The position numbers and the translations under genes were made by a program. A stretch of 64,000 nucleotides of DNA, taken from assembly GCA_965285935.1 (NCBI GenBank), contig OZ260667.1, positions 39,246,001-39,310,000 on the forward strand, written 5' to 3'. The DNA is from Ophelia neglecta (taxonomy: Eukaryota). Within the stretch, counting starts at the first letter, position 1. Each line of letters starts with the position of its first letter. Positions 23,463 through 64,000 of this stretch are shown one piece after another. The notes beneath the pieces are model-generated. The model was not told the origin of the DNA. It saw only the letters and a program-made list of their open reading frames with translations, and ran no database searches.

Positions 23463-23522
23463 GTGTCAAAAAACATCGTTTACCCAGTATGTCCATACTG
23501 GGTAAACGATGTTTTTTGACAC
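23463..23522. repeat. Perfect inverted repeat, 29-bp arms with a 2-nt spacer
   Basis: GTGTCAAAAAACATCGTTTACCCAGTATG-TC-CATACTGGGTAAACGATGTTTTTTGACAC. Confidence 0.95.
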
Positions 23523-27549: not shown

Positions 27550-27646
27550 CACAGGTGCTAGTGTTAATGTCAATGCTACCCACTGTGTATAAGAGCGAAG
27601 CTCTTATACACAGTGGGTAGCATTGACATTGACACTAGCACCTGTG
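27550..27646. mobile_element. 97-bp fold-back mini-transposon with an 8-bp target-site duplication (hAT/P-like signature)
   Basis: 47-bp arms with one mismatch around a GAA loop, CA...TG termini, and AGAATAAG duplicated at 27542-27549 and 27647-27654. Confidence 0.88.
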
Positions 27647-34654: not shown

Positions 34655-34945
34655 AGTAGTCCCCTGAAACGGACAATGGTTCTTAGATATATGGCCTAGA
34701 ACAAACAATCCTGGTAATACTTGTCCATAGGACAACCATACCTACGGGATGAAATGTATCCTCGAATATATTTTCTGCCTATATTGAGGAAATTAATACC
34801 TAATATACGAATACTGTGTTATATAGTCCCACGGACAATACATACTGGGACTAACGTATTTGTCACACCAGTTACCGGTATGATAGTGCCCAGAAAGTAT
34901 GGTGCACTGGGACATTTATTTCAAGAGGTCATATGGTCCTAGTCA
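34655..34945. repeat. Degenerate GTCC/GGAC-rich repeat relic (probable old MITE)
   Basis: GTCC..GGAC pairs and TGTCACACCAG. Resembles 31245-31580. Confidence 0.3.
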
Positions 34946-35031
34946 CAAATGAAGGTTATAAAAACGTGCATGATATTCACCCTCTCGTGAAATGAAGCAG
35001 TAAGGCTTTTATCAGCGCTTAATATTATACC

Positions 35032-35717
35032 AATAACATGATTTTGCAGGGCGTTACGCTATATCAGTGGCCCGACATAAATTATTAGCAGCCCGCCATA
35101 GTCATAGCGCCCGAGGCGTAGCCGAGGGTGCTATGACTATGAAGGGCTACTAATAATTTATGGAGGGACACTGAAGTAGCGTAACGCCCGTCAAAATCAT
35201 GTTATTACTATTATTATCACTTTTTAAATGACGTTCCGGTGTCGACGTGAAAGGAATATAGCCCCCCGCTTTGTGTATCCTATCAGGTAGTATGTGTATT
35301 TTATAGCAGTGATCGGCACCAGAAGACTGCTAGGTAATACTACTTATGCTTGTGATATGTATATGCCGACTTTTGTCCCGCTACGCAATATTAATCCAAT
35401 TTTCTCGAAAAACAATATGATCAAAATAAACATTTTATACACATATTTGTAACGTTAGTTAAATCTTGGAATTTAGCTATTTCCTGGGAATATATATTAA
35501 TAAATGCATTTAAAGGTTAATCATTATAATCGTACCACCCGGCTTTACGTCACAAATGAACATGTATATAACACTACCAGTCCGCTAATCATTAGCGGAC
35601 TGCCTCTCATTAGCGGACTGCCACCAAGGCTCTGACGTCACCAGTCAGCAGTTATTCTGTTTTACCGCCAATGTAAAATAGAGCTATCCTACAGGTAATG
35701 CCCTCGTAAGTGATAAT
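35032..35717 (+). mobile_element. Non-autonomous element with a 175-nt terminal hairpin and a 10-bp subterminal inverted repeat (Crypton- or Helentron-type architecture; family unassigned)
   Basis: Hairpin 35032-35206 (86-bp arms, GTA loop, no indels). ATTATCACTT at 35213-35222 is inverted with AAGTGATAAT at 35708-35717. Internal palindrome CAGTCCGCTAAT-C-ATTAGCGGACTG at ~35578-35602. No TSD seen. Confidence 0.6.
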
Positions 35718-38700
35718 TATTGCCAATGCAACATATGATGGTATATTAGTATGAACTTTACCAGTCCTATATTATAAAACGCAAATGAGCTTGGTATTAA
35801 TAAAACGCCGGTTCTACCGGATGAGGCCACCTGTAGGAAATTTCCATGGCACTGCGCTGTCGCAGCCTTATGTTTCTGTTAATACCATATAGAAAAAACC
35901 ATAAAAATGCTATCATGCGACAGCTAATCATCCCCGAAGATTTTATCGATACCTGGACGTGGTTGATGTTGAGTTGTCAGGGGTAAATAACTATCATTTG
36001 TGATGAAAGCAAGCCAGGGATTGAGGCAAGGAAGATTAGCCAGGTCCAAGTTTTAGTCTCACGTGAAATCATGTCTAGACATTTTCTGACAGATACACGA
36101 ATCATGTATTTCTTAGGGTACAGACCAATATCTTATTTATTTTCATAGTGACTTAGCAGTTTCCAGAGTAGTTGTACAAAGGAGAGTGTCAATCGCCTAA
36201 TAACTAGGCCAGATGTTTGGGCTTATGCTCGAATATTAATGATATTTGTAAGCCAATAACATCTACATGTATATTATTATCCTCCTACGTTCTGCAATCC
36301 AGACGCAAATGCTAATTTTAATAAAGCCAAACATATTTTTAATTCTGATAACTGACATCCTAACAAGACTCTAGTGTCATTTATCCCTTTCTTTGGCTTG
36401 TTTGTTTTCAGACACACCCGTTGGTATTGGTAGCTTCATCCAGGCAGTGCCAACATTTGTGGGCTGCTGACCCTTGTTTTGGCTAACATTTTTTTTAAAC
36501 ATTTTGCACAAAGATCTGGGCCCGTTATTTAAAAAAAATCAAGCTTTGTTAACGGGTCATAGTCACCCGAATGTCACCCAATATCGATTGTTTCACGGTG
36601 CTACCGGCCGAGAATCAACTATTGAATAATGTTGATCATTTAACGTATAGTTATAATGCTTGATTTATAAGTTGCATATTTCCCAGCTGAATGTTAACTA
36701 TTAGCATTAAAACTCTATAACTAATTATGAATATCAAACTAAGAGTTTTGACAAATTGCAATTAAGCAGGTAATTCTTACCTTATGGTTTTACCTTAAAC
36801 ATAATATAGATAGATAGATCATTATTTATTTAAGGGGCACGTGTAAATACAATAACATTATATTTTTATAAGGAATATTGGGCCGGAAAAAAACCCCATG
36901 TATCCAATACAGCCAGCCTCTGTCCCTGCTAATATGACCGCAGACTCTATCGAACAAACAGGCAACCCAATGGTCAAAGTGTAGTCTGCCTATATTTATC
37001 AATCCATTATGATGGGCTTATGACTTCAATAATAGTTTCAGTGAAAATATGAAAATATCAGATGTCATTTGCGACAGACATAAGACAGCTTACTCTCAGA
37101 GTATACAATTCCACATGAGTGCCATGATACCATTTCAAATATGGAAAATATCAATTTGTTTTTTTAGTAATGCCATTTCTCGGCTAACATTATGGTGGGG
37201 ACCTTTGTTCCTTTGTAAGGCAACGCGCCGCTTTGAGCTGTTGGCTATTGAAGTTCGTCCATTGTGGCATTTTTATGGACCCAACCGGTCCTTTGCAGCA
37301 GATCAAAGTCCACCCCACTGTTCCATCTTTTTGTACGTTCTACAAACATTTACTGATAAATTTATAAGTTCTGATGGTCATTTCAGCCTTAGTTTTTACG
37401 AACTAGGGGCGGATATCCTAAGATAAATACTTGGGTAGAGGTGGCATAGCGTATATCAATATACTTTTTATTGTAATAAAAAGACAGTATCACCATCCCG
37501 GCCCTAAATCGCTAGAATACACGAAAAGATGAATATATCTATCGCCGATCTGGCAGAAATTATTGAGTTATTTCTGTGGCATTTTGTGGCTATTTCATGG
37601 TTTCTGGTTTTCAATACTTAAATGTCAAAACTGTAGTTTTGCTTGTTAATCAGATGTCAGATCTGGCGCGTATCCGATTTTGTTTTATCGGCCATTAAAC
37701 AAGGCAGGCTACACACAAAGCAAAGTCAACATGCTTTTATTGCTCTGTTTTAAGTGGCACACAATGTTGCAGTATTTAAGACACATATTCATCTTGAGCA
37801 TTGAACCGATACAGGCCACAGTGGGTCATCAATGACAAATAAATTGGTCAATTGATGTCGCCAATATGTTCAGTCACTTAAGCTTAAAGTCTGATATATA
37901 CTAGGTATATTACTCACGAGATGCTTGCTATCTACTCTTAAAAACTGCTTAACAGAACATATTTATTGTTAGTTGATAAGCACAAAGCTAAGTTTAACCA
38001 AAAAATTGTCACAAAAAGATGCTTGTTTGACGATTATGTATTGCTAAGCCAATAATGGTTAAATGCATACAACATTTAATAAACTTAACACTTTATTCGT
38101 GTTAATAATGCATCAATTCAGGTTAGTTTAATGGTATACAGGGCACTATGTTATGTAGATCATCAAAAGGTGCAGTCAACTTACTCGCAAAGTTTGGATG
38201 ATTGAGCATTACTATCTTGAAAGATAGGTGGTGTCAGACACAGAGTAAGTATTCATCGTATGCAAGACCACAATAAAATCGTAATAATTTTAAAACTGGA
38301 AATATCAGATTGATTTTATTGCCATCTTAAAACCCTTTGGCTAGGCTTATTTTCCTTAACTTCATTTGAACATCCTTTGGTTGAAATAAATTTCAAGATT
38401 ATACCAATTATTTGTCAAATGACAAATGACTCATTTGTAAATGAGAGAAAAATCTTAATGTCAGATGCTAATATGACAAATCGGGCTGGGCGAATCAACC
38501 CTGTTGGTGAAGGAAAGTAAGTGAGGTATTTCATATGCTTTTTTAAGATAAACCTTTGAAGATGACAGAGTTTATACAAATGCAAAAAGCAGTTATATAA
38601 AAATAAATCCTTGTCCTGCATCACATTTAATTCACTGGCAGTATGAAAGTGAACAGTCAACTTTAATGCAGATATACGCTGCTAAAACATTATTCATTCA

Positions 38701-40617
38701 CCTCCTTTGTCCCACTTCAGCTTTTATGAGGATGTAAATAATGACTGGTGTACTCGCGGCCCCTAGCATTCATAGCGGTAGGAGAGCTTGAACATGGGGC
38801 TCAAAGCACCTGTCATAAATTTCGTCAACATAGCAGGTTTCTGAATAATGCATTGTGTCTTATTAACACAAAGCTGTTGTCGTAGGATATACGAGAGCAT
38901 GATTTTTATCCCACTGATACATTTGTTTCCGTGTCGCTGTGCTTTCAATATGCTATATTGAATGGATGCTGTTAACTTTGAAGTCATAAATATTTATCAT
39001 TTCGCGACTTTGCTGACTCAGTTGATTGTTTCCGGCAACTGAAGTGTATCCATAGGAAGGAAGATGGGATCAGGCTTTGATGGGCGGAGATGTGTATTTG
39101 TGTTATTTGATCAGCAATAATGGCAACACATTAAATGGACAATTCGGCAGACACTACAAGACTCTTTGGAAAGGAGAAGGACATTATGTTGCATCAATTG
39201 ACGATAAATCTAACTGTGTGGTATTAATGTAACAAGAATTCAGTAACGGCAATGAAATTTTGATATGTTTAATCAATTATATGCCCTTTTATGATTTACA
39301 TTTGAGAAATTATCTCGATGAGAAACTACGCTTGATATCTAAACTAAAGATACCTCAGCAGATAGATGTGTATATTTGGTAATGTCTTATTGAGATTATT
39401 GATGAATGACTCCTGCTTGGGTTTCATTACCCTGCTGTAGTTCTGTAGTTCTGGCACTAATCATTTTAGTATTTTAATGTTTATATTATCTCGTTCTGGA
39501 ACACACATAAGCATTTCAACTAATGATTCAACTCGTTGTGGAAACCAAAAGACTGAACAAGTTTCTTCTAACAAACTTGTTTTGCATAGTCTTAGGAAAC
39601 GTTACATAAATAATCGAATGTGCAACTTCAGATTTACCTGAGGAGGTGCACCATCACACTGAATAGTGCATGGTTTCTGGAAACGACACAAACATGATCA
39701 AATCCTAAATAGATGATACATCTCATTCAGTCGAGCGAAGGCGTGATTGATGGCACCATCAGGCTTTTGCTTAACATCAATCAACTTTATTTTTTGTCTC
39801 ATACATCTTCCTGATCAAAGTTCAACACAATAATGTTGACAGCACATTGATCTTTTATTTCGTGGGCAAATATACGGAAACACTGTGCTTATCGCCATCA
39901 TTTTAAAACAGGCATACTAGGCATATATATTAACAATGCATGTCATGATGCCCTCCCATTGTGCACTCAGTGGCCCTATTAGGCTAAAATGAGTTTGATA
40001 AGGAACATACACAAGGAATGAACATGTTTATTTCATTTCTGAGCAGTGGCGTATATGAAAAAAACCAATACCGCATTTTGTTACAAGAATGGTTTACTTG
40101 TAGTCCAAATAAATTTTTCTGAATTATCGTTCTCAAATGTGACATGGGCATGTAATACTCATGTTCATACCGTGCCCCATTTACAAGCAATTGATTCCCT
40201 CACAGCAAATATAACTAGGCTTGTGACCAAACACATATTTGACCCCGAGTCACAATTTATAAGAGATATATTTGACTGCCGAAAATAGCATATAAAAACA
40301 AAAAAAAATATGATTCCATCATATTTCTTGGGAAACAACAGGTTTAAATCAGGAGTATATCACAGGTATTCGTACGGTGTTAACTAATTGCAGTTCGGTT
40401 GGGCGCCGCATTCGCACTTCCCGACAGCCTAACATACTGCGATGTAATCAAAGGCCGTCTACATAATGTGTCCAAGAATCGGCCCTTCTTTGATTAATAC
40501 TGATAATCTTACATCTAAGGCCTCCGTGGACGACAAAACTCACTTAAATCAGTGAATAAAATGACAGTTAGAAGTGTCAGAAAGAACTCGCGATAAGCAG
40601 CAGACTCAAGTGATTTA

Positions 40618-41603
40618 CTAGTTCCTAGTTCCTAGTTCCTAGTTCGAATTAGGAAATGAAACTCAAGCCATTTCCTAATTCCAGTTCCTAGTTCCTTATT
40701 CGAAATAAACCTACTAACCTAGATCTAAGCACACAATATCACTCTTTATGACCCCTAGTGATCATTTCTGCCCAAAAAGAATCAAAATCCGGCGGTTTTT
40801 GGCCCTTTTTCGCCCATTGAAAGTTGAGGGGAAAGAGGCCGCCAGCCGAGTTAGCCTACCGGGCGCCGCCGGTAAGGCCATGAGGTCGGAGGGGGTATAC
40901 AATTTGCAGGAAAAAAACATGCAAAATTGGCCATCTAGAAATGATCCTGGGAGCGTGAAACGCCTATAAAACACAAGTACCCGTTGCAAAATTTTCTGGC
41001 CCACCATGAATTAGGAAATGGCACTTAACCGATTCACTATTCATTAATCGCCGAGAGTAAGTAAATATCCATTTTAAGAATTCCAGGCAACTTCCAGTAG
41101 CTTCTAATGATGACTTATCTTTACTGGTATACCTACCAGGTCATTAGACACAAAGGCAACGCGATTTTTCTCCATTATTTGCACATTGAAAACACAAAGT
41201 CGAACTAGGAACTAGGAACTAGGAACTAGGAAATGGCCAGTTCCTAGTTCGAAAGCCTAGTTCCTTATTCAAAAAACGATTAAAAAATCACTCTAAAAGT
41301 ACCTAAATCAACCATGTTTCATCTCCAAAGTACATTTCCGGCCCAAAAAACTTGAAATTCGGCGATTTTTGGCCCATTTTCGCCCATTGAAAATCAAAAT
41401 CGAATAAGGAAATGGCCAATCTACGCAATCTACCCAAAATTTAAGGCCACCATTCAACTCTCCATGGCCCTAAAACAAATTTCTGACCCAAAAATTACAA
41501 AATTAGGCGATTTTTGGCCTATTTTCGCCCATTGAAAATCAAAATCGAATAAGGAAATGGCCAAACTACGCAATCCACCCAAAATTTAAGGCCACCATTC
41601 AAC
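40618..41603. repeat. Complex repeat: inverted (CTAGTTC)4/(GAACTAG)4 arrays plus a 145-bp-period tandem duplication
   Basis: Heptamer arrays at 40618-40645 and 41202-41229. Units at ~41354-41458 and ~41499-41603 are near identical, with related units near 40765-40820 and 41160-41210. Many TCGAA(C/T)(T/A)AGGAA variants occur in both orientations. Confidence 0.8.
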
Positions 41604-60188: not shown

Positions 60189-63100
60189 TTAAAGGATAAC
60201 ATGTATTCTGCCCCAGTAGATAGCACTTAATTTCAGCAGCTCTAGATTTTGGATATTAAACATTTCGACATCGTATTGATGGCATTCAAATTTACCCAAC
60301 AAAGCGTTAACAAAGTGCCTGTTGTCCATTTGGTATAAGTTCACCGCGAGTGGAGGGTCAATATTATCAAAAATAGCATCCCAATGCAAATCACGTACGT
60401 CTCTGAAATTAGGACATGTACAAATGAAGTGAGTCACAGTATCGGTTATTACCTCCTCACACATTGGACACGGGGAAGGCATAGATATTGCTTTACTTGC
60501 AATGGTGGCAAGTGCGGAAAAGCAGCCCCGGAGGTGAGGGAAATGGGATGCTGCAGTCCATATCAGATGAGACTGTGCAGGGTCGAGACATGTCTGCTTG
60601 TAATGTTCCAAAGACCTGTCTTGTGTCAGCTCCCAAGACACCCAGTTCGTGTAAGCGCGTCCAACAGCATCCCTTACCAAGTGCTTCCATTCACATTGGC
60701 TTGGCCATTCAGCGTATTGAACCAGCTGCAGGAGGTACCCGCGCAGACCGAGACGACTCATGCACTCCATCAGGTCAGGTAGGAGTCCGTATCGTGAGAC
60801 TGAAGAAAATAAAGCATGATGAAGTCTCTCTCGGAATACTTTCACCACTAGATGGTTTGGCGGAAGTTGCAAAATTCTTCCCATAAAGAGTAGCTTTTTC
60901 TCGTCTATCAGTGTTTTTAATGGCAACACGCCAAGCATACTATGCGCAATCACTGTCCTGGTGAGGAGGGGGAGATTCTGGATTGATTTGGTGCAGAAGC
61001 GATGGGCTCTCTCAATTTGGGCTAATTCTGAATGAGACATCTGCGACCATAACTCACAACCGAACAAAGCCCTAGGCAGAACCATGCACTGATACAGCTT
61101 CCTGGCTGTCAATACCGAAAGTCCTCTTGGATGCACACCAAGGCCGGCAAGAGAAATGATTCCCTGTTTCAGTCGGTGAGATGTTTCTTTTGCCCGATCG
61201 ACGTTCGTATCACGTGTGTTAAGGAGAATACCCACATGAGTTTCCTTTGACGACACCGGTAAGGGCGTCCCATTGAGGAGCCACTTCCTTAAAGGTGTCA
61301 GCCTAACTGTATCCCGCGGAGACTCGTTAAACACAAGTACGGTAGATTTTGACTCGTTGTATGTGTATCTCCACTTTGCTGCATATCGTTCACATATTAA
61401 AATCATTTTCTGGAGGGCATTTGGTGAGTAAGAAACAAGCGCAATGTCGTCAGCTTGCTGCACGGACCCGGTGTATATTGAACCAACCGTTGCGCCAAAA
61501 CCACAGTCTCTTAACTCCGTGGTCAGTTCGTGGACAAATGCCAGGTATAGTCTTGCGCCTAATACGGACCCCTGTCTGCAGGATTGTAAGACAGGAATGG
61601 GGGTTGATGCCTGCCCGTTGACGATGACCGACGCCGTCATGTTTTTGTATTCTGCCCTAAGGAGACTCCAAAGCTTGCCGCGGATCCCCAAGTCGTGCAG
61701 TTTTATAAAAAGACCATCAAGCCAGACACTGTCGAAAGCTGTGGATGCGTCTAATAGACATACATAGGCCTTTGTTCCCCGCTCTCTAGCATAAGCAATT
61801 GTTTCTTGGAGCACAAACGATGTCATGAGACAACATCGCTTCCTCTGGTAGGCGTTTTGACTGTCAATCGGAAACGGCTTCGGTTGTCGGACGCTATAAT
61901 TTTCCCACCTAACCAGAATGACTTTCTCAAGAAGTTTTGCGATGACTGGGAGTAGGCTAATGCAACGATGGTTTTTTCGGTCATCCGAATACTTTCGTTT
62001 TCCTTTGTGGATGGTTAAAATCAAGCTATGCTTCATGTCGCTAGGCACGTGTGAAGCTTTGTATGAACTGTTGAACAGCACGGCTAAACAAGAATAAAGC
62101 GTAACGCCTCCATATTTCAGGTGTTCATATGTGAGGCTGTCCGCCCCTCCACATGAACCGTTCTTAAATTGTTTAATAACGCATGCCAGTTCCTCTGGCG
62201 TGACTGGGTTTTCCATTATCGGATCTGCTTCATGTAAGGATGTCGCGTGCTCGATCGTGTTAACAGATTCTGAAACTTTTTCGTAGTGACCTCTATCAAA
62301 AAGCTCGCTATCAGTGGGGGCGTACAAATTGGCAATGTGTTCTTCCCAGGCATCCATGATTTTGTTTTGAGAGACAATGGTCTTCTCATCAATTACTAGA
62401 GATATGTTGTTATCCTTCGTACGGGTAGAACCACGTCTCTGGCGCAATTTGCGCCATAGACGCTGTTGATTGACCACAGCTGCTTCGTCTATTGCTGAAT
62501 AGAATTCTGTGTCAGCCTGCCTTTCTAAGCGTGCCATGGAGTTCGCAAATTTTCGCTTTGACTTCTTATAAGTTGCATAGGAACTAAACTGCATTCCCCG
62601 AGGTCGACCCTCAGAAATCCACACCTTTCTCATTAAGAATTGTTGCTTTTGAAGTTCTTTTAGACCACTAGACTTCCAATGAGGCCTCAGATAAGAGCGA
62701 AAATGTGTAGTTGGTATGGTGATATTTGCTGCCACCTGAAGGGATGCAACAATGGACGCGTAAAATGTATCGATAGATCGCGGATTGGAGTCAGGGAGGA
62801 GGGGATCTTTAAGGAGGTTATTTAGTAATCCAGTATATGCCATCCTGGCGGCGTCATCCATTTTGTCCCACGCTAGGCGGGGCGGCCTTTCGTTTTCCCG
62901 AACCTCCGCCACCGGTATTGTCAAGCAGGTCTTGACGGGCAAGTGATCGGATGTGTTGACATGAGAGTCATCAACAACTTCCGTAAGCGTGAGAAGGTTC
63001 TTAATTGCATATGAGCAAACAATATGGTCTATGAAGGACTGGGGGCCACCTTCATATGGGTCAAAAGTATAGTGTGGCCCGACAACTTGTCCTAAATCTG

Positions 63101-63692
63101 TTTTTATGTACAAGTTATGATTCCAGATCATATCATGGACGAGCGCTGCTCTGGGGGAGTTCCTTTTTCTAATATCACAGTTAAAGTCGCCCAGTAATAT
63201 TACGCTGTCAGTTTCAGACAGTGTTGGCAGGAAGTTGTCAAGCTTTTCAATGGTGTGAGCAAATTCAACAAACCCTCTCTCGGCAGAGGGAAGGTAGACG
63301 CCGATTATGACGACTTGGGTCGATACATCAGGTCGGATTCGTATTGCTATGAAGCGGTCCGAATCTGTTGGAATTTTGGATATGATGTGTCTCAATGAGT
63401 TGCGCCACATGATGGCGACACCACCTACACCACGTCGGCGTTTGTCCCATGGATTATTGCGTCGGTCAGATACCGCGTGTATTGAATATCGACTGTCCAC
63501 TGAACTTAAGAAATTGATACTGTCCTCAAAGAGCCAGTGTTCACTGATAATCAAAACATCATTAGATGCGAGTAACGTGGATAAATAGTTTGCTGATCGC
63601 ATTGCTCCTTTGCAGTTAAAAGCGGAGAGAGAAAGATGATGTGCTTCCATGATTGGAGTGTATAGAGTTTTTATTTTGGGTCTTTTGACCAT
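60189..63692 (-). CDS. LINE ORF2: apurinic-like endonuclease, reverse transcriptase and C-terminal CCHC zinc knuckle
   Basis: APE motifs FNCKG, ISEHWL, GVGGVAI, GVYLPS, GDFN, SFIDH, SDHLP. RT motifs RCISLL, QNAYQ, LDASTAFDSV, RQGSVLG, QADD, ETHVG. C-terminal CPMC..THFICTC. The true start may be the second Met at 63650. Confidence 0.95.
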   Translation of the reverse strand: MVKRPKIKTLYTPIMEAHHLSLSAFNCKGAMRSANYLSTLLASNDVLIISEHWLFEDSINFLSSVDSRYSIHAVSDRRNNPWDKRRRGVGGVAIMWRNSLRHIISKIPTDSDRFIAIRIRPDVSTQVVIIGVYLPSAERGFVEFAHTIEKLDNFLPTLSETDSVILLGDFNCDIRKRNSPRAALVHDMIWNHNLYIKTDLGQVVGPHYTFDPYEGGPQSFIDHIVCSYAIKNLLTLTEVVDDSHVNTSDHLPVKTCLTIPVAEVRENERPPRLAWDKMDDAARMAYTGLLNNLLKDPLLPDSNPRSIDTFYASIVASLQVAANITIPTTHFRSYLRPHWKSSGLKELQKQQFLMRKVWISEGRPRGMQFSSYATYKKSKRKFANSMARLERQADTEFYSAIDEAAVVNQQRLWRKLRQRRGSTRTKDNNISLVIDEKTIVSQNKIMDAWEEHIANLYAPTDSELFDRGHYEKVSESVNTIEHATSLHEADPIMENPVTPEELACVIKQFKNGSCGGADSLTYEHLKYGGVTLYSCLAVLFNSSYKASHVPSDMKHSLILTIHKGKRKYSDDRKNHRCISLLPVIAKLLEKVILVRWENYSVRQPKPFPIDSQNAYQRKRCCLMTSFVLQETIAYARERGTKAYVCLLDASTAFDSVWLDGLFIKLHDLGIRGKLWSLLRAEYKNMTASVIVNGQASTPIPVLQSCRQGSVLGARLYLAFVHELTTELRDCGFGATVGSIYTGSVQQADDIALVSYSPNALQKMILICERYAAKWRYTYNESKSTVLVFNESPRDTVRLTPLRKWLLNGTPLPVSSKETHVGILLNTRDTNVDRAKETSHRLKQGIISLAGLGVHPRGLSVLTARKLYQCMVLPRALFGCELWSQMSHSELAQIERAHRFCTKSIQNLPLLTRTVIAHSMLGVLPLKTLIDEKKLLFMGRILQLPPNHLVVKVFRERLHHALFSSVSRYGLLPDLMECMSRLGLRGYLLQLVQYAEWPSQCEWKHLVRDAVGRAYTNWVSWELTQDRSLEHYKQTCLDPAQSHLIWTAASHFPHLRGCFSALATIASKAISMPSPCPMCEEVITDTVTHFICTCPNFRDVRDLHWDAIFDNIDPPLAVNLYQMDNRHFVNALLGKFECHQYDVEMFNIQNLELLKLSAIYWGRIHVIL

Positions 63693-64000
63693 CGTTGGGA
63701 AGTTTTATCCTGTCTACTATCGTCACCTGATTTCGTAAGCCATTTATTTGCATACGCCTTTTTTGGCCACTGAATGTCATGAAGGAAAGCGGCCGCTTCC
63801 TTAGTAGCAACCTTGACCTTTGCGTATTTACTCTCACCTGTCAGGCTTTGTTTGATATAAATAGACTTGATGTGGAAACCGTGCGAGTTGATAAATTGTT
63901 TGACCTGTTCATCTGGGGCTTTGGGACCAATGCCTCCTACATAAATTTTTGTGTAATTTCTTGGCTGTACCTCAATGAGTGGAGACTCTTCTCCGTCAGT
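63671..64000 (-). CDS. LINE ORF1 C-terminal fragment with an RRM-like domain (absent from the ORF track; 5'-open)
   Basis: Manual translation from 64000: TDGEESPLIEVQPRNYTKIYVGGIGPKAPDEQVKQFINSHGFHIKSIYIKQSLTGESKYAKVKVATKEAAAFLHDIQWPKKAYANKWLTKSGDDSRQDKTSQRWSKDPK*. IYVGGI is RNP2-like and YAKVKV is RNP1-like. Confidence 0.8.
   Translation of the reverse strand, partial: TDGEESPLIEVQPRNYTKIYVGGIGPKAPDEQVKQFINSHGFHIKSIYIKQSLTGESKYAKVKVATKEAAAFLHDIQWPKKAYANKWLTKSGDDSRQDKTSQRWSKDPK

Follow-up and report, generated by a model that had tools for sequence, protein, structure and literature searches.

A long imperfect hairpin at the left end of a non-autonomous Crypton of Ophelia neglecta: a possible folded single-strand recombination site

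Crypton transposition has, in the words of a section of a 2026 review, never been shown experimentally, and a double-stranded circle is assumed (PMC13565253). The sections of Kojima and Jurka (2011, PMC3212892) that treat animal Cryptons report no terminal repeats, and neither 'hairpin' nor 'palindrom' occurs in the main text of that paper; a curation guide, in its Crypton entry, names a short direct repeat as all that sets the group apart (PMC8969392). Here we describe a 694-bp Crypton derivative in a 64,000-nt stretch of Ophelia neglecta DNA (GCA_965285935.1, OZ260667.1:39,246,001-39,310,000; hereafter the window, whose coordinates are used throughout). Its left end is a long imperfect hairpin (35032-35206) that may work as a folded recombination site. 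We found no paper describing a hairpin in Cryptons, or a site like the DIRS elements' internal complementary region (ICR); Repbase Reports, Dfam, subscription papers or supplements may contain one.

The closest likeness is to CryptonA as set out in parts of PMC3212892: the parent of our element is recombinase-only with a DUF3504/tyrosine recombinase domain, the R-H-R-Y residues are intact, the short termini are similar, and deletion derivatives far outnumber coding copies. Crypton-like too is the lack of a reverse transcriptase, a DDE transposase, a C-terminal GCR1 domain or terminal inverted repeats. Unlike the Cryptons of Kojima and Jurka, the element has a hairpin of 86 bp, carries a complement to its two ends in its interior, and enters a defined target with a 6-bp spacer. 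Eulor5 and Eulor6 are hairpin-shaped. Together with Crypton-N1_SSa as well as CryptonA-N2_SSa (salmon) they are likewise short non-autonomous animal Crypton repeats, compared here by description only (PMC5753468, from whose text the word 'hairpin' is absent).

Two further systems share parts of the layout. In DIRS-1, following the account in PMC7192593 of its termini, an internal region, the ICR, is complementary to both ends, as here; our element differs in having no gag, reverse transcriptase/RNase H or long inverted terminal repeats, and its complement lies 3 nt from the left segment, forms a hairpin and matches imperfectly (7/5 spacer). The integron attC site and the attP(+) site of CTX phage, as outlined in portions of PMC4792948, are imperfect palindromes with a 3-nt crossover microhomology and unpaired bases; the present element shares these traits, its unpaired bases being conserved and its stem covarying, and a single exchange with replicative resolution may be a further likeness. 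It differs in being eukaryotic, in an enzyme model nearer to Cre than to IntI4, and in that use of the folded strand is here inferred. An I2-like domain, as in integron integrase, was not identified in the recombinase.

The hairpin and the element it terminates

The two 86-bp arms align without gaps, with 13 non-Watson-Crick pairs and a GTA loop (35118-35120) closed by a C:G pair, which is the stable closing pair for d(GNA) loops in the data summarized in PMC3201870. There are five 2-nt tandem mismatches (35047-48, 35062-63, 35074-75, 35095-96 and 35113-14). Four of them adjoin CCC/GGG and two are GA opposite GA; one consists of a T.G wobble and an A.A pair, and the single mismatches are G.A, C.A and G.T. 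Re-alignment thus reproduced the geometry (86-bp arms, 13 mismatches, five tandems, triloop) given in a preliminary description made from the letters of the window. DNA folding gave -74 kcal/mol for the + strand (z -16.4) and -69.4 kcal/mol for the - strand (z -17.5), and none of 200 shuffled sequences was as stable as the hairpin on either strand. The same description had expected folding on one strand only; in our model both strands fold, and as the energies are similar they were not used as evidence of polarity. The only Rfam matches, to MIR4387, were below threshold and on both strands, and were set aside as a generic hairpin effect.

No second copy of the hairpin was found within the 64-kb window. 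A search of the genome (762 Mb) gave 601 candidates, and the 40 that were scored were 98-100% identical over the hairpin; the sequence common to copies runs from 35026 to 35719. Read contigs (three runs, one sample) place the element limits at the same positions, as a depth step with loose ends. This depth (up to ~80,000 versus 26) marks the ends and is not usable as a copy number, and no joint skipping the whole element occurred among the read-contig joints listed. A 19-mer from the right end has 349 genome matches (with at most 1 mismatch), giving a family of about 350 copies. The 175-nt unit of the preliminary description is therefore a real and multi-copy hairpin, but makes up only the left quarter of a 694-bp element, whose features are as follows.

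35026..35719, + strand: whole non-autonomous Crypton element, 694 bp, no gene; ends from 43 copies, the read-contig depth step and the match to the long copies L081/L082
35026..35032, + strand: left terminus L, with the 7-nt spacer TATACCA, unpaired against a 5-nt stretch when folded; first six bases near-invariant in 43 copies
35032..35117, + strand: hairpin arm 1, from DNA folding and arm alignment
35074..35075, + strand: second GA/GA tandem, partner 35163-35164
35113..35125, + strand: apex, with GA/GA tandem, 3-bp stem and C-GTA-G triloop
35121..35206, + strand: hairpin arm 2, forming with site I an ICR-like complement to the two ends of the element
35211..35222, + strand: internal site I, in which the right terminus recurs as its reverse complement; pairing from whole-element folding
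35225..35226, + strand: deletion junction, about 2.07 kb including the whole recombinase frame missing
35226..35719, - strand: body, corresponding to the region upstream of the parent recombinase gene; 83-85% identical, with gaps, to L081/L082
35708..35719, + strand: right terminus R, ending in TAA in 39 of 43 copies and in TTA in the window copy

The parent was located through the recombinase. A DUF3504 search of the genome gave 27 matches, one of which lay 1.3 kb from an apex match, and led to two loci, L081 and L082. These are about 2.7 kb long and 96% identical, and each has the hairpin end, a minus-strand frame and a 495-bp right part. The window element equals their left 200 and right 495 bases, with a 1-nt overlap at the joint, which sits immediately upstream of the likely start codon of the recombinase. 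By sequence comparison the window element is an internal-deletion derivative of this 2.7-kb Crypton, and its body (35226..35719) is likely to be the promoter and leader of the parent gene. A query with the missing middle gave 11 matches, with full copies at L081 and L082 only.

The recombinase is the sole frame of at least 250 aa inside L081/L082. It scores above the cut-off for PF00589 and PF12012, with no other Pfam family found, and R203, H322, R325, H348 and Y357 are invariant in six aligned proteins from five families, the recombinases of which are 20-30% identical. The predicted model has a pLDDT (predicted local distance difference test) of 88 and its best Foldseek match is Cre (E 1.5e-9); a sequence search of the PDB gave weak integrase matches only (E 0.09-0.8). 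There are 172 relatives at E 1e-10 or better, and the few that are named among the 120 listed are unannotated proteins from a barnacle and two corals. At L081:4380-5320 the frame appears to resume, after a likely intron, in a short exon ending in a motif that resembles the C-termini of other families.

The preliminary description had proposed that the hairpin belongs to a non-autonomous element moved by a tyrosine recombinase or by an HUH enzyme. The first alternative is supported: long copies encoding a tyrosine recombinase exist in the same genome, and the hairpin is the end of their derivative. For a Helentron/HUH-type element with a rolling-circle transposase one may cite the hairpin, the short asymmetric inverted repeats, the lack of a duplication and the insertion before a 5' T, all of which recall the second Helitron type in the Helitron portion of the curation guide (PMC8969392). 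The only long copies (two full-length among the 11 matches) encode a tyrosine recombinase and not an HUH Rep/helicase, however, and the target has the symmetry of a recombinase core, so that we regard a Helentron as extremely improbable. No HUH partner was seen among the long copies, the genome not having been searched for Rep/helicase genes. That the hairpin is the left end of a non-autonomous Crypton, with its family, ends, parent, intact catalytic residues, duplication-free insertion and far-end complement, we regard as practically certain.

Target, spacer polarity and internal site

Ends and flanks were read from 43 copies, leaving out one tandem copy, duplicates and loci without a matching end. 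Two flanking stretches derive from the target.

35023..35025, + strand: target-derived 3-nt core left of the cut, TAT here, consensus TAN; variable among copies
35720..35728, + strand: 6-bp spacer and the second half-site, both from the target; 38 of 43 copies have T at +8

The left core has the composition T34 A42 A30 and is part of the target at empty paralogous sites; on the right, the T at +8 is accompanied by A at +9 in 30/43 copies. TAAT stands at the left in 23 of the 43 and at the right in 38. The flanks of another family, B (22 copies), are biased in the same way. Empty paralogous sites show insertion at a single point without gain or loss (two clear cases and one partial in this family, three in family B), and two family B copies inserted into the same repeat, each on a different strand, at cuts separated by 6 nt (40642 and 40649). 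From the spacing of these cuts and the flank biases, the target is therefore TAN^N6-NTA (^, cut), a symmetric recombinase-like core with a 6-bp spacer, and it shares the near-certainty of the Crypton assignment. The window repeat at 40597-40860 and 41197-41274 contains CTAGTTC arrays in inverted orientation, and copies of this repeat elsewhere serve as family B targets on both strands.

The arrangement of the spacers is one-sided: the whole target spacer lies on the right and the element spacer on the left, and in the 43 copies the right core does not carry the flanks of earlier donors. In the terminal short direct repeat, one copy comes from the target and one from the element, and empty sites have a single copy. 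Neither terminus is an inverted copy of the other, and the sequence that is inverted relative to both lies inside the element. An exact 'right end + TATACC' occurs at 14 sites, 11 of which run into left-end sequence (joined ends), while the 3 further loci (two events) have an intact left end. No spacer-swapped copy was present among these 14, versus 349 right ends. A one-sided spacer is as expected for a single strand exchange, and biased repair after a double exchange could also give it.

This polarity bears on the published proposal for Cryptons (PMC3212892 and PMC13565253, in their passages on mechanism), in which two exchanges between short repeats at the termini excise a double-stranded circle; on this view the hairpin and site I would serve as binding arms in double-stranded form, as a cruciform or as an accessory site. 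The target, with its symmetric core and 6-bp spacer, suits that proposal, as does the Cre-like fold, and TATACC at both ends in two independent copies exceeds the ~0.4 expected by a rough estimate. A junction-target pair without spacer homology should, however, give both spacer arrangements, and one is seen. Nor do L and I invert freely, the apex being flipped in 2 of 30 copies and both times within the arms, and the bases flanking GA/GA vary between families while their pairing is kept. We consider this double-stranded circle model, the chief competitor of the folded-strand reading given below, rather unlikely here. Arm-to-arm conversions and inner flips were seen in single copies (L057, L072, L074, L081 and L180) and have not spread.

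Site I follows arm 2 directly. Of 28 whole copies folded, 26 were predicted to pair it with the last bases of the element, whichever strand was used, with pair probabilities of 0.79-0.96 for 35213-35221 in the window copy. Arm 2 and site I are thus complementary to both termini, and the folded strand would hold a recombinase core whose spacer has unequal sides of 7 nt and 5 nt. The 7/5 spacer could also be read by eye in family B and in a metagenome locus (L193), and an I/R match stands at the copy-defined far end in 5/6 families with defined ends.

We give slightly better than an even chance to the reading that the hairpin works as a folded single-strand recombination site. The left-to-right strand would be exposed, probably at replication, and there the hairpin would begin to form from the GNA loop and the GA/GA pairs. 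Once site I had bound the right end, the result would be a recombinase site in duplex form, TAA^spacer-NTA, whose 7/5-nt spacer is mismatched. Recombinase supplied in trans could exchange one strand and release a self-paired circle, the other strand staying at the donor; the circle would exchange one strand with a target having the same 3-nt core, and the junction might be resolved by replication, in the manner of attC in integrons and attP in CTX phage. Copy-and-paste spread would follow.

The joined ends were examined with a right-left junction pattern, which has 13 genome matches. Ends are joined at 12: six are head-to-tail, three are inverted copies reading across the joint and three are short stubs. 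In the 13th, site I has been converted to a perfect complement of the left end. Joined ends fit a circle paired with site I without proving one. Head-to-tail dimers as proof of circles were rejected: the right junction recreates the target, so that re-insertion can also make them.

Apex polarity across families and organisms

We aligned 60 loci, 30 of them best matches and 30 chosen by exact apex, a selection biased towards conservation, and obtained 42 distinct ungapped hairpins. Twelve of the 13 mismatches are family-wide, as the preliminary description had anticipated, and one (35149) is private; among apex matches genome-wide, GA, GNA and GA lie on the same strand in 186 of 191. Because the family is so young this fixation is descent and proves nothing about function by itself. 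The expected covariation of paired positions was absent within the family, where a single cell of the 42-copy alignment is compensatory, and present between species.

In this genome a terminal hairpin is present in eight recombinase families, and for six of them copy comparison defines the ends. The GA/GA pair lies on the strand running from the hairpin into the element in 7/8 families, the eighth having a decayed GA/GC, and the loop is C-GNA-G in six of the eight. Flanking bases vary between families yet remain paired. The recombinase gene is antisense to the GA/GA strand in three families and sense in five; polarity is thus independent of gene direction, which points to DNA geometry rather than RNA. 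Recombinase-like and mostly decayed loci (L127, L128, L130-L133 and L135) have no GA-type hairpin within 9.9 kb.

Related recombinases were found at 39 metagenome loci, 27 of them with at least 0.5 kb of downstream DNA. A candidate terminal hairpin follows in 10 of the 27, and one further locus has one upstream. The expected GA/GA polarity was seen in 9 of these 11 hairpins (about six families, by eye), and one hairpin is one-sided. Compared with the window copy, the metagenome hairpins have 3-4 compensatory pairs in the basal 22 bp.

These comparisons bear on a further reading, in which the mismatches were inherited from one master copy as neutral remnants and the hairpin arose as a side product of earlier template switching. 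The youth of the family (98-100% identity over the hairpin) favours it, fixation alone being no proof, as does the finding that three of the five tandems are not common to other families. It does not account for the same GA/GA polarity and end geometry where recombinases are 20-30% identical, or for the compensatory stem changes in other organisms, and we judge it very improbable. Of the view that the mismatch pattern is meaningful, the GA/GA pairs and the loop, which recur across families, stand; the other tandems reflect descent from one master copy.

An RNA route is scarcely more credible. Here a transcript would be reverse-transcribed in trans, as in DIRS, with site I restoring the cDNA ends, or the hairpin would act as RNA. 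The layout and the shared 3-nt core do match the DIRS ICR as depicted in sections of PMC7192593, and the MIR4387 matches, sub-threshold and on both strands, might be taken in its favour. The parent has no reverse transcriptase, however, its only frame of at least 250 aa being the recombinase; it has kept a likely intron; and GA polarity tracks the ends rather than the direction of the gene.

GNA mini-hairpins occur at phage single-strand origins. The GNA/GA apex might be a signal for priming or an origin, through which a single-stranded circle, once excised, becomes double-stranded ahead of integration; a conversion step of this kind belongs to the DIRS model in the relevant part of PMC7192593. 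The conserved GA/GA and GNA are some 80 bp away from the crossover, too distant for a core site, which fits such a role. It would leave the fixed spacer polarity and the conserved 7/5 junction spacer unexplained, and as a full account we think it unlikely; as an added role, priming is compatible with recombination on a folded strand.

Several observations weigh against the folded single-strand site. We infer it from structure, and neither the circle, nor the single strand, nor the reaction has been observed; head-to-tail dimers, as noted, can arise by re-insertion. Both strands form the hairpin and the I-R pairing equally in silico. The 12-nt I/R match of the window family scores below shuffled controls (12 vs 15), I/R beats such controls by score in only 4/8 genomic families, and it exceeds them in only 4/9 metagenome loci with flank, one of these doubtful. 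The top structural matches of the enzyme are to Cre, which acts on double strands, and an integron integrase ranks 35th. In each of the two coding copies the hairpin is damaged, by an inner flip with deletion in L081 and by a truncation in L082. Within the 42 copies, mismatch columns are not poorer in substitutions, and G35186A, present in 23, costs the GA strand a pair where the opposite strand retains a wobble. The loops are TTT and GTCA in the two families lacking C-GNA-G, no candidate for a terminal hairpin was seen at 17 of the 27 metagenome loci with at least 0.5 kb downstream, and at one metagenome locus (L222) the polarity of the hairpin is reversed.

If recombination on a folded strand is nevertheless correct, integron-like chemistry would operate in animals, Crypton ends would be linked to the DIRS ICR, and many unassigned hairpin repeats could be classified by a structural signature. 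More broadly, and with somewhat less than an even chance of being right, animal Cryptons may be the eukaryotic counterpart of integron cassettes and CTX phage, with a self-splinted 7/5 site, a single exchange into TAN^N6-NTA and replicative copy-and-paste, involving no RNA step and no double-strand break. The family offers material for a test: its recombinase is intact, its 0.7-kb substrate is young and has exact ends, its target is defined, and the prediction, single-strand exchange on the folded strand, is specific.

At least four more young Crypton families with recombinase frames were noted in the genome (L042-L044; L047-L050/L085; L033/L035; L034/L036). Some of their copies are intact, and the L047 family has about six copies that are 94-99% identical. 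A further hairpin family, with long arms and a GA-GGCC-GAA-GGCC-GA apex, lies at L141:1400-1640. The DUF3504 loci L031, L032/L041/L046 and L045 are single-copy, and the frames of L031 and L045 lack parts of the catalytic set by eye; judged from sequence, these loci are likely to be domesticated genes of the ZMYM/KIAA1958 kind.

Elsewhere in the window, a short stretch just left of the element (34655-34867) has raised contig depth and is probably another repeat. A near-perfect palindrome at 27550-27646 has 47-bp arms and a GC-GAA-GC apex without a GA/GA pair, and a perfect palindrome at 23463-23522 has 28-bp arms and a 4-nt loop. On the minus strand, 60189-63704 holds an uninterrupted 1171-aa frame with a PF03372 endonuclease and a PF00078 reverse transcriptase, a young non-LTR (long terminal repeat) retrotransposon.
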